Origin: an uncultured bacterium
Lineage (GTDB): Bacteria > Patescibacteriota > Minisyncoccia > Phycocordibacterales > UBA9973
Assembly (NCBI GenBank): GCA_903869975.1
Contig: CAIQBF010000107.1
Location: 1-27,640, forward strand
DNA length: 27,640 nt
Reading direction: 5' to 3'
Shown: positions 20,668-23,171 of the stretch, in pieces
How positions within the stretch are numbered: the first letter of the stretch is position 1
Layout of the letters: the number at the start of each line of letters is the position of its first letter
Notes under the pieces: generated by a model
What the model was told of the DNA's origin: nothing
Databases searched by the model: none
The model's input: only the letters and a program-made list of their open reading frames with translations
Made by a program: the position numbers and the translations under genes

Positions 20668-21069
20668 TTAAATAATAATATTTTCCAAGTACTCGACCTG
20701 TGCACTACGCAAAACAGGATTAAGATGGACCACAATGAGGTCGAATTGCCAGTCCCGATCGACCCGCCGCTCAAGCAAATAGGTCGAGACGGTTCGCCGC
20801 AAACGCAGGAGTTTCTTTTGATGCATTTGCTCTTCTGGGCGATACCGGTCGAGTCTTTCACGGGAAACGCGTTCAGGAGACACTGTCTCGGCTTTTACTT
20901 CCACGAAGTGAACAATCGACCCTTTCTGGGCAACAATATCAATCTCGCCCCATTTCTTCGTGTAATTACGCTCAAGTATCGAGAAACCCTTACGCTGTAA
21001 GTAGAGGGAAGCAATCTGCTCCCCCTTCTCCCCCACCCTTTGTGTTTTTGAAGTAAAGACCTTGGGCAT
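20668..21069 (-). CDS. yraN: YraN/UPF0102 family PD-(D/E)xK nuclease-like protein
   Basis: GEKGEQIA, ILERNY, WGEIDIVA, HFVEVK, FDLIVV motifs. Confidence 0.9.
   Translation of the reverse strand: MPKVFTSKTQRVGEKGEQIASLYLQRKGFSILERNYTKKWGEIDIVAQKGSIVHFVEVKAETVSPERVSRERLDRYRPEEQMHQKKLLRLRRTVSTYLLERRVDRDWQFDLIVVHLNPVLRSAQVEYLENIII
20854..20869. other. parS-like site inside yraN (encodes VSRER)
   Basis: Minus strand CGTTTCCCGTGAAAGA, 13/16 to TGTTTCACGTGAAACA. Confidence 0.5.
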
Positions 21070-21090
21070 AGACCTGTGAGTTACTCACAC

Positions 21091-21106
21091 GGTTTCACAT
21101 GAAAGC
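21091..21106. other. parS-like site upstream of yraN
   Basis: GGTTTCACATGAAAGC, 12/16 to the consensus. Confidence 0.45.
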
Positions 21107-21170
21107 TCGTCCTTAATAAACCCTTATTTATCAATGTTTTTTTCCATAAAGGACTTATGGAAGGTGTCCG

Positions 21171-21200
21171 TTATACACACATTGCACACCTTTATCCACA
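21171..21200 (+). promoter_or_regulatory. Two co-oriented DnaA boxes
   Basis: TTATACACA (21171-21179) and TTATCCACA (21192-21200) match TTWTNCACA. Confidence 0.65.
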
Positions 21201-21288
21201 GGTTGTCTATTTCGTTGTCGAGTTATCCTTTAGACGCTTCTCCCTTTCCTTTACGGTAATTCCGCCTTTGTCTGTATCGCTCGTTTTG

Positions 21289-21359
21289 TGCGGCCAAGGG
21301 TAATCGAAACCCTGTCTCATCCTTGGCAAGGACGTGTTCTACCACTAAACCATGGCCGC
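21289..21359 (-). tRNA. tRNA-Gly(GCC), CCA not encoded
   Basis: Acceptor GCGGCCA/TGGCCGC, anticodon arm CGTCC-TTGCCAA-GGATG, T loop TTCGATT; followed by CAA. Confidence 0.93.
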
Positions 21360-21488: not shown

Positions 21489-21560
21489 GCACCCGTAGTG
21501 AAATGGATCTCACGACGGTCTTCGAAACCGTTATTCCAGGTTCGAATCCTGGCAGGTGCA
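21489..21560 (+). tRNA. tRNA-Arg(TCG), CCA not encoded
   Basis: Acceptor GCACCCG/CAGGTGC (one C.A mismatch), anticodon arm ACGGT-CTTCGAA-ACCGT, GGTTCGAATCC, D-loop GGA. Confidence 0.9.
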
Positions 21561-21575
21561 CACTAAACGTTTCTT

Positions 21576-23171
21576 ATGAAACAAGATTATAACCGAATAG
21601 ATACGGCTCTCGTCCCCTCTTATGTTACACATGTAACGGAGACCCTCGAGAAGGCCGGATATGAAGCATACATTGTTGGTGGCTGCGTCAGGGATCTTTT
21701 ACTTGGGCGCGAACCTAAGGATTGGGATGTGACCACAAACGCCACCCCCGAACAGATCATACCTCTCTTCGAAAAGACGGTGTACGAGAACAAGTTTGGC
21801 ACTGTTGCCGTCGTGTTCGAGCCCAAAGAGGCCCCCGTTACACATGTAACAGAAGAAATAGTTTCACGTGAAACTATAGATAGCGTTACACATGTAACAG
21901 CAACCCAGAAATACATAGTCGAAGTCACTCCTTTCCGCACAGAGACCACTTACTCAGACTTCCGCCACCCCGACGAGGTTCGCTTCAGCACCAAGATCGA
22001 CGATGACCTTATGCGCCGAGATTTTACGGTAAATGCTATGGCATATAGGCTTTCTGACCCGTCTAAAGGACAGAATACTGAAAATAGCCTTATAGATCTG
22101 TTTAATGGACGCCAAGATTTAAAGGACAAGGTCTTACGGACGGTAGGAAATCCGGGCGAGCGCCTAAAGGAAGACGCGCTCCGCATGCTCCGAGCTGTCC
22201 GTTTCTCGGTACAATTAGGCTTTTCTATGGCCGTGGAAACGACTCAGGCTATCATGGACAACGCAGATCTACTCAAAAACATCTCCGCTGAACGTATCCG
22301 AGACGAATTCGAGAAGATAATCACGTCGCCAGAACCCGCCGTCGGGATCGGCATGCTGCAGAAGTTTGGCCTACTCAAGCATTTTATCCCCGAACTTGAA
22401 GAGGGAATCAAATGTGAACAGAAAGGGGAGCACATTTATGATGTATACGAGCACCTCCTGCATGCCCTCCAACATGCGGCTGACAAAGGATGGCCGCTCG
22501 AAATACGTATTGCCGCACTCTTCCACGACATCGGTAAGCCTAAAACTCGCCGATGGGACGGAACCAAGGCGGGAGGAAAGGGAAAGTATACGTTCTACGG
22601 CCATGAAGTCGTCGGAGCACGAATGGCCGACAAAATCATGACTCGCATGAAATTCCCGAAAAAGGTAACCGACCTCGTGGTCACACTCGTCCGCCAGCAC
22701 ATGTTCTTCTCCGACACTGAAGCAATCTCGCTCAGCGCAGTTCGTCGAGTCGTTGCAAAAGTAGGGAAGGAGAATATCTGGCTCTTGATGAATATCCGTG
22801 AATGCGATCGGGTGGGCATGGCAAAAAAGGAAGCTCCCTACCGTCTACGCAAATACCATGCCATGATCGATGAGGTGCTTCGCGACCCAATCTCTGTCGG
22901 ACAGCTCGCTGTCGACGGAAGCATTCTTATGAAAGAACTCGGCATGAAGCCAGGTCCACGCATGGGCTGGATACTCCACGCACTTCTTGAAGAGGTGCTC
23001 GACGATCCCGCAAAAAATATACGTGCTTATCTTGATGCGAAAGTAGGGGAGCTTGAAGCGCTTTCGGACAAGGAGCTGCGTGAGCTTGGAGAGAAGGCGA
23101 AGGAGGCGAAGGAGGAACTCGAGGAGGAAGAAGTTGCGAAGTTGCATGCTAAGCATGGAGTGAGGAAGTAA
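21576..23171 (+). CDS. cca: CCA tRNA nucleotidyltransferase with HD domain
   Basis: IVGGCVRD, DWD, RRDFTVNAMA, EDALRMLRAVRF, ERIRDE, LFHDIGKP, FYGHE. Confidence 0.93.
   Translation: MKQDYNRIDTALVPSYVTHVTETLEKAGYEAYIVGGCVRDLLLGREPKDWDVTTNATPEQIIPLFEKTVYENKFGTVAVVFEPKEAPVTHVTEEIVSRETIDSVTHVTATQKYIVEVTPFRTETTYSDFRHPDEVRFSTKIDDDLMRRDFTVNAMAYRLSDPSKGQNTENSLIDLFNGRQDLKDKVLRTVGNPGERLKEDALRMLRAVRFSVQLGFSMAVETTQAIMDNADLLKNISAERIRDEFEKIITSPEPAVGIGMLQKFGLLKHFIPELEEGIKCEQKGEHIYDVYEHLLHALQHAADKGWPLEIRIAALFHDIGKPKTRRWDGTKAGGKGKYTFYGHEVVGARMADKIMTRMKFPKKVTDLVVTLVRQHMFFSDTEAISLSAVRRVVAKVGKENIWLLMNIRECDRVGMAKKEAPYRLRKYHAMIDEVLRDPISVGQLAVDGSILMKELGMKPGPRMGWILHALLEEVLDDPAKNIRAYLDAKVGELEALSDKELRELGEKAKEAKEELEEEEVAKLHAKHGVRK
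21623..21638. other. parS-like site in the 5' part of cca (encodes VTHVT)
   Basis: TGTTACACATGTAACG. Confidence 0.6.
21836..21899. repeat. Three parS-like palindromes at exact 24-bp spacing inside cca
   Basis: CGTTACACATGTAACA (21836), AGTTTCACGTGAAACT (21860, perfect palindrome with the canonical 14-bp parS core), CGTTACACATGTAACA (21884). Confidence 0.8.

Follow-up and report, generated by a model that had tools for sequence, protein, structure and literature searches.

A phased array of parS-like sites within the cca gene of an uncultured Patescibacteriota bacterium

Known parS systems and the cca locus

ParB dimers recognise a 16-bp site, parS, close as CTP-dependent clamps and spread outward. 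It is well known that parS sites occur in bacterial genomes and that some of them are intragenic; the B. subtilis spo0J gene contains one such site. The F sopC and R1 parC iterons are arrays of centromere repeats that are non-coding and plasmid-specific. Intragenic parS has also been described within repABC genes (PMC9040568). In S. pneumoniae there are four origin-proximal parS sites of the sequence AGTTTCACGTGAAACT together with an orphan parB and no parA, and ParB-parS loads SMC (PMC7022226).

The stretch of DNA analysed here, referred to as the window, is 27,640 nucleotides long and constitutes contig C107 of a 716-kb assembly that comprises 110 contigs, is 95% complete and has a GC content of 48.6%. 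Within the cca gene of this window lies a cluster of parS-like sites that shares features with each of the systems above. Like F sopC and R1 parC, it consists of closely spaced, phased tandem sites for a partition protein (binding here being predicted), but the sequence concerned is the universal chromosomal parS and it is translated. Like the intragenic parS of spo0J and repABC, the sites overlap codons; those, however, are single sites in existing coding sequence, whereas here the repeats add new, disordered protein sequence, and the number of sites varies between species via in-frame indels. The likeness to S. pneumoniae, the closest of these systems, is in the central 16-mer, which is identical, in the clustering in a probable origin region, in the presence of SMC, in a single canonical ParB with a GERRxRA box and in the fact that no ParA was found. 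Unlike in S. pneumoniae, the sites form a tight 24-bp tandem array that adds approximately 23 residues to a protein, and they are mostly of a lineage-specific variant, GTTWCAYRTGWAAC. The detectable sites here are all confined to about 1 kb; the 10 sites of B. subtilis, C. glutamicum or P. aeruginosa, by contrast, stand as separate loci (PMC7022226 Table 1, PMC4368675). In the searchable literature, which omits most subscription journals, no description was found of a parS array that is translated and phased and builds a variable insertion in a protein.

The cca gene, its loop insertion and the sites

The features discussed below are as follows, in positions of the window.

21576..23171, + strand: cca, 531 aa, class II tRNA nucleotidyltransferase with an HD domain
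21819..21914, + strand: sequence encoding the loop insertion (about aa 82-113), which separates strands 77-81 and 113-119
21836..21851: cca-loop site 1, variant parS-like, 16-mer CGTTACACATGTAACA, core GTTACACATGTAAC from 21837, frame 0, VTHVT
21860..21875: cca-loop site 2, perfect 16-bp palindrome, 16-mer AGTTTCACGTGAAACT, core GTTTCACGTGAAAC from 21861, frame 0, VSRET
21884..21899: cca-loop site 3, variant parS-like, 16-mer CGTTACACATGTAACA, core GTTACACATGTAAC from 21885, frame 0, VTHVT
21624..21637: N-terminal site, variant core as in loop sites 1 and 3, aa 17-21 VTHVT, inside helix 15-26
21569..21582: weak site, GTTTCTTATGAAAC, one mismatch from the motif, lying across the start codon of cca
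21092..21105: weak site between genes, GTTTCACATGAAAG, also with one mismatch
20855..20868: degenerate site within yraN, CTTTCACGGGAAAC, VSRER, two mismatches from the parS core

Judged from its domains and motifs, the cca product is probably a CCA-adding enzyme. Pfam matches were obtained to PolyA_pol (split in two stretches), PolyA_pol_RNAbd, HD and tRNA_NucTran2_2, and the translation carries GGCVRD, DWD, RRDFT and EDALRMLR, which answer to the GGxVRD...DxD and RRD/EDxxR motifs of a class II head domain. The NCBIfam CCA models matched below their equivalog cut-offs (284 against 438.8, and 272 against 290), and the best solved relatives were the CCA-adding enzymes 6ibp and 1miv. A tRNA-Arg(TCG) gene at 21489-21561, 15 bp upstream of the start of cca, is followed by ACT with no encoded CCA, so that at least this tRNA needs CCA addition. 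Given how closely the tRNA-Arg gene, the weak site at the start codon and cca follow one another, they may be co-transcribed. Close relatives of the cca product are encoded by metagenome-assembled genomes labelled Paceibacterota, Paceibacteria, Minisyncoccia or Patescibacteria, that is, by the Candidate Phyla Radiation (CPR).

The original observation was that the array builds an insertion at a turn that is normally short, and this was confirmed: the strand-to-strand segment is 37 aa long here, against a modal 14 aa among 78 orthologs and 1-3 residues in solved CCA enzymes, and the HMMER alignments to 6ibp and 1miv break exactly at the insertion. An AlphaFold2 model of the protein (28-sequence alignment, mean pLDDT 84) gave residues 85-109 a pLDDT below 50 and no secondary structure, in agreement with the expectation of a disordered loop, while helix 15-26, which holds the N-terminal site, was modelled with a pLDDT of about 90. 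A second, small lineage-specific insertion in cca, LSDPSKGQNTEN at 22050-22085 (aa 159-170), has a pLDDT of about 50 and no parS-like site; an insertion like it at the same position was seen in one other genus member only (L012), with similarity in the first seven residues (VSAPSE...).

The start-to-start period of the three loop sites is exactly 24 bp, and their 14-bp cores all lie in frame 0 of cca, with GTT-TCA-CGT-GAA-AC spelling V-S-R-E-T and GTT-ACA-CAT-GTA-AC spelling V-T-H-V-T. The array had been described as three in-frame 16-bp palindromes separated by 8-bp spacers. The spacing and the frame are as described, but of the three only the middle one is fully palindromic; both outer sites are imperfect, with cores that are 12/14 self-complementary and flanking bases, C..A, that do not pair. 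The two 8-bp spacers are unlike each other (GAAGAAAT between sites 1 and 2, ATAGATAG between sites 2 and 3) and stand between retained sites, and the spacer residues of orthologs are unrelated, bearing out the claim that spacers diverge where sites are kept. The middle site, at 21860-21875, has a perfect core, matches the general parS consensus TGTTNCACGTGAAACA at 14/16 positions and is identical to S. pneumoniae parS (PMC7022226 Table 1). The other three of the four strong sites differ from canonical parS at 3/14 core positions, including the non-palindromic centre CACATG, and match TGTTNCACGTGAAACA more loosely, at 13/16 positions with N allowed. The consensus, which is also that of B. subtilis, has N where the variant core differs (PMC7022226).

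The loop array had been taken for the entire cluster, which proved too narrow, as a fourth, identical variant core is found at 21624 and weaker sites are found at 21569, 21092 and 20855. In one relative (L007) an exact palindrome, GTTTCATATGAAAC, occurs at the position equivalent to the weak start-codon site and contains the start codon. The yraN site at 20855 is possibly a decayed one. In the whole 716-kb assembly GTTWCAYRTGWAAC is found only at 21624, 21837, 21861 and 21885, and even the loose pattern GTTNCANNTGNAAC gave the same four places only; the expected number of chance matches in the window is 0.04 for the variant core and 0.05 for parS. A motif scan found no other parS candidates anywhere in the assembly, which is fragmented (110 contigs, 95% complete), so that a further site or a parA could sit in unassembled DNA.

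Purifying selection on the cca sites at the DNA level

Copying of an 8-codon unit in tandem could be enough to give a 24-bp period, and the repeat might be kept for its peptide, a V-[ST]-x-[EV]-T motif with a function in the enzyme. It might also have arisen by a recent tandem duplication that is neutral, or as a palindromic insert of a mobile kind. Both the 8-residue period of the peptide and the identical 17-nt stretches with which units 1 and 3 of the array start would be in keeping with such an origin. A codon test was carried out on the columns lying under this genome's own sites, without conditioning on the motif in the orthologs. Where orthologs had the same residue they used the same codon in 98.5% of cases at the site columns; for 387 other columns the corresponding share was 40.7% (MWU p = 3.7e-9, a value that, like the other p-values, is overstated because related genomes are not independent). 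Outside the sites, synonymous divergence is close to saturation. The codons GTT ACA CAT GTA of the N-terminal site were identical in every ortholog with the same residues, and at the column of loop site 1, where orthologs were too few for a codon tally, all six of those encoding VTHVT spelled the identical core. Just beyond the core, the third base of the final Thr codon is variable. The cca sites are thus under purifying selection at the DNA level, with synonymous positions frozen only within the sites and the spacers free, as had been foreseen.

Within this genome, VTHVT and VSRET were found in cca only, among the long ORFs, and the similar pentapeptides VSHVT, VTRVT and VTYET, which occur elsewhere, are spelled with other codons; the probability that the four peptides would spell these cores under the genome's own codon usage is 2.8e-9. 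A reading at the level of the peptide or of duplication is hard to reconcile with synonymous freezing that is confined to the sites when divergence elsewhere is nearly saturated, with the use of other codons by the kindred pentapeptides, with sites that also occur in another frame and across a start codon, or with a loop that is modelled as disordered and varies in its length and spacers. Nor does the motif behave like a mobile repeat, since it is found nowhere else in the genome. We consider this whole group of explanations highly improbable, and favour selection on the sites as DNA.

To determine how the sites are distributed, 41 related genomes of the same genus, family and order were searched with GTTWCAYRTGWAAC. 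Exact matches were present in 31 of the 41, and among the matches listed nearly all were inside cca or less than about 1 kb from it, while a reversed-pattern control gave 0-2 matches per genome. In the three genus members that gave no matches, the contigs bearing cca are truncated. Among orthologs from the genus the cca loop contains 0-3 exact sites, and the changes in length keep the frame; variable site number with frame-preserving indels is what had been predicted for the orthologs. Spacings of 24 bp are the commonest in the genus, with 15, 27 and 69 bp also occurring, and 24 bp accounts for 17 of 35 adjacent exact pairs (sites no more than 120 bp apart). The middle site, in the VSRET column, is the best-conserved site column in the genus. 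Across the 78 orthologs the modal 14-aa segment (e.g. GVVNETVSDETLKV) has no exact site and the expanded loops carry sites, loop length and site number being correlated (Spearman 0.78, over related genomes that are not independent). In being rare in the genome (four matches in 716 kb) and conserved as DNA, with frozen synonymous positions and retention at cca across an order, the sites have the character of parS.

Sites also appear at other places. At 22935-22952 this genome encodes ELGMKP and has no site. Of 13 genus members, 7 have ELHMKP in its place, and three synonymous changes accompany the replacement, which creates GTTACACATGAAAC in frame +2; this site has been gained or lost within the genus. 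In an order-level relative (G026) the array is located in yraN and not in the cca loop: the yraN ORF (L025:3-434, minus strand) contains four in-frame parS-like sites at L025:148-254, which encode VSYET, VTHET, VPHET and VSYET at spacings of 24, 45 and 24 bp. In distant cca orthologs (e.g. L026, L031, L073-L093) the hairpin turn V-S-D-E-T is almost always encoded by GTTTC[A/T]GATGAAAC, which is one base from the site motif. This coding could be an ancient weak site or else plain AT-biased codon usage.

Public reads were also examined for polymorphism in the length of the array. In Logan contigs the region was present in one lake-water study only; these contigs were built separately, and the study is possibly the source of the window's own sample. 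The array was present in them with no indels, which is evidence neither way. Relative to the window, the contig from run X1 had T>A at 21875 and C>A at 21824, with the 14-bp cores unaltered, and the former, at the flanking 16th base of the central site, is synonymous (ACT>ACA).

A conserved palindrome might also be kept for pairing, as an mRNA hairpin acting in cca translation or stability or as a cruciform. An 80-nt region here folds to -20.3 kcal/mol (z = -4.5 against shuffles) and the whole array is a 74% complementary inverted repeat, as secondary structure of this kind would have it, but such folding is expected of any array of palindromes. A tally of 191 exact sites included 76 hybrids, with A..A or T..T at positions 4 and 11, which lack self-complementarity, and the commonest centre (CA) is unpaired too, indicating that it is the sequence of the half-sites that is conserved and not the pairing. 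The spacers are without covariation, and sites also occur between genes and in a gene on the opposite strand. Maintenance of the sites for secondary structure is therefore very unlikely. The hybrid sites, the frozen synonymous positions and the absence of the motif elsewhere in the genome led us to reject the RNA-hairpin, peptide-repeat and mobile-element readings.

ParB, the probable origin and the role of the cluster

A chromosomal ParB that would be cognate to the sites is encoded in the same genome. It is a single protein of 329 aa (MADFY..., contig C21) that matches ParB_N with 95 bits and TIGR00180 with 161 bits against a cut-off of 58, contains a GERRLRA box and has its best PDB matches in Spo0J/ParB (1vz0, 7bnk, 6sdk, 6t1f), ahead of Noc. 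An SMC_N match is also present in the genome. ParA/Soj (PF13614) scored below cut-off in this genome and had no match in five near-complete relatives (G001, G011, G021, G025 and G034), and the matches to PF01656/CbiA were only short P-loop matches in proteins of approximately 560 aa. The set thus falls short of a complete ParABS system, which includes the ParA/Soj Walker ATPase. As the genome is 95% complete, the absence of ParA is probable rather than proven, and the ParB-parS system of the lineage appears to work without ParA. ParB was detected in 37 of the 41 related genomes, the few without a match being incomplete assemblies that still carry sites. For this reason ParB-lacking relatives, considered as a natural control, were uninformative.

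It is conceivable that some dimeric DNA-binding protein other than ParB uses the palindromes as operators, for instance a local transcription factor for cca, yraN or the tRNA genes. The variant GTTACACATGTAAC and hybrids, rather than canonical parS, make up most of the sites in the genus, and sites flank promoters and tRNA genes, both of which would suit an operator. However, at the best-conserved site the core is exactly that of canonical parS, and the variants mix the same half-sites, GTTWCAY. It is hard to see a promoter operator in an array that lies in a translated loop, in sites towards the 3' end of the gene or in those of yraN, and the 37 genomes with a canonical ParB and the lack of other parS candidates in this genome also speak for ParB as the ligand. 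We regard an operator function as unlikely.

Several observations bear on the position of the cluster relative to the origin of replication. In four relatives dnaA is 35-46 kb from cca, and in this genome it is on another contig. In the single-contig relative G021 the parS pair is at 539.3 kb, within a broad minimum of cumulative GC skew at 515-560 kb that forms a flat plateau; a DnaA-box scan of G021 to locate the origin found one perfect box only, far from cca. In the window the GC skew changes sign near 21 kb, and the only perfect DnaA box, TTATCCACA, is at 21192-21200, with a one-mismatch box in the same orientation at 21171-21179. The region between yraN and tRNA-Gly, at 21070-21290, contains the DnaA boxes and AT-rich stretches, and on the basis of its sequence is a candidate replication origin. 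The parS cluster probably lies beside the origin, the position of which is only roughly located.

Taken with the evidence for ParB, we think it likely that the cca cluster is the chromosome's ParB nucleation cluster, located by the probable origin, and that it has expanded the tolerant tip of a hairpin with the peptide as a by-product. The four strong cca sites would be the parS cluster at which the single ParB nucleates, and the weaker sites at 21569, 21092 and 20855 probably belong to the same cluster. ParB would recognise these sites, the variant core being where binding is most a matter of prediction, and would then clamp via CTP and spread. The high coding density of the genome would force the sites into genes, and those in cca would occupy a beta-hairpin tip that tolerates insertions. 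Since selection on the DNA fixes the codons, the disordered peptide with its 8-residue period would be a by-product of the 24-bp-period site array. It had been suggested that the genome stores its centromere inside an essential gene. The sites are indeed in cca and are the only ones of the genome, but as no ParA was found the locus is probably a ParB/SMC loading site. With no detectable ParA, the likely output is organisation of the origin region and loading of SMC, as in S. pneumoniae, and not ParA-driven transport. The cca sites would then have a role in SMC loading, and the 24-bp spacing may have a functional meaning.

A broader proposal is that in the Paceibacteria-type Patescibacteria, which are apparently ParA-less, the whole ParB loading region is a compact, evolvable and translated parS array. 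In such an array 24-bp units would be gained and lost, and sites would appear in more than one frame and move between the yraN and cca genes; the ancestral V-S-D-E-T turn (GTTTCAGATGAAAC, one base from the motif) would have been made into a site and then multiplied. At present we see this generalisation as evenly balanced between being right and being wrong. If it is true, a cis-acting chromosome-segregation element directly writes and remodels the sequences of essential proteins across a bacterial class.

The locus is an unusually clean natural case of dual coding, in which a DNA-protein recognition site, and not protein function, appears to set a run of residues in an essential enzyme, and the signatures of this dual coding are measurable as frozen synonymous sites, free spacers and variable copy number. 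The natural arrays, with spacings of 24, 27 and 69 bp, are defined substrates for determining how closely ParB clamps can load. For annotators, 'low-complexity' loop insertions in proteins of the Patescibacteria (CPR) can be cis-elements and not protein features. The locus also gives a first concrete picture of the chromosome-segregation locus in an uncultivated, genome-reduced lineage, with all sites in approximately 1 kb by the probable origin, ParB and SMC, and no ParA detected.
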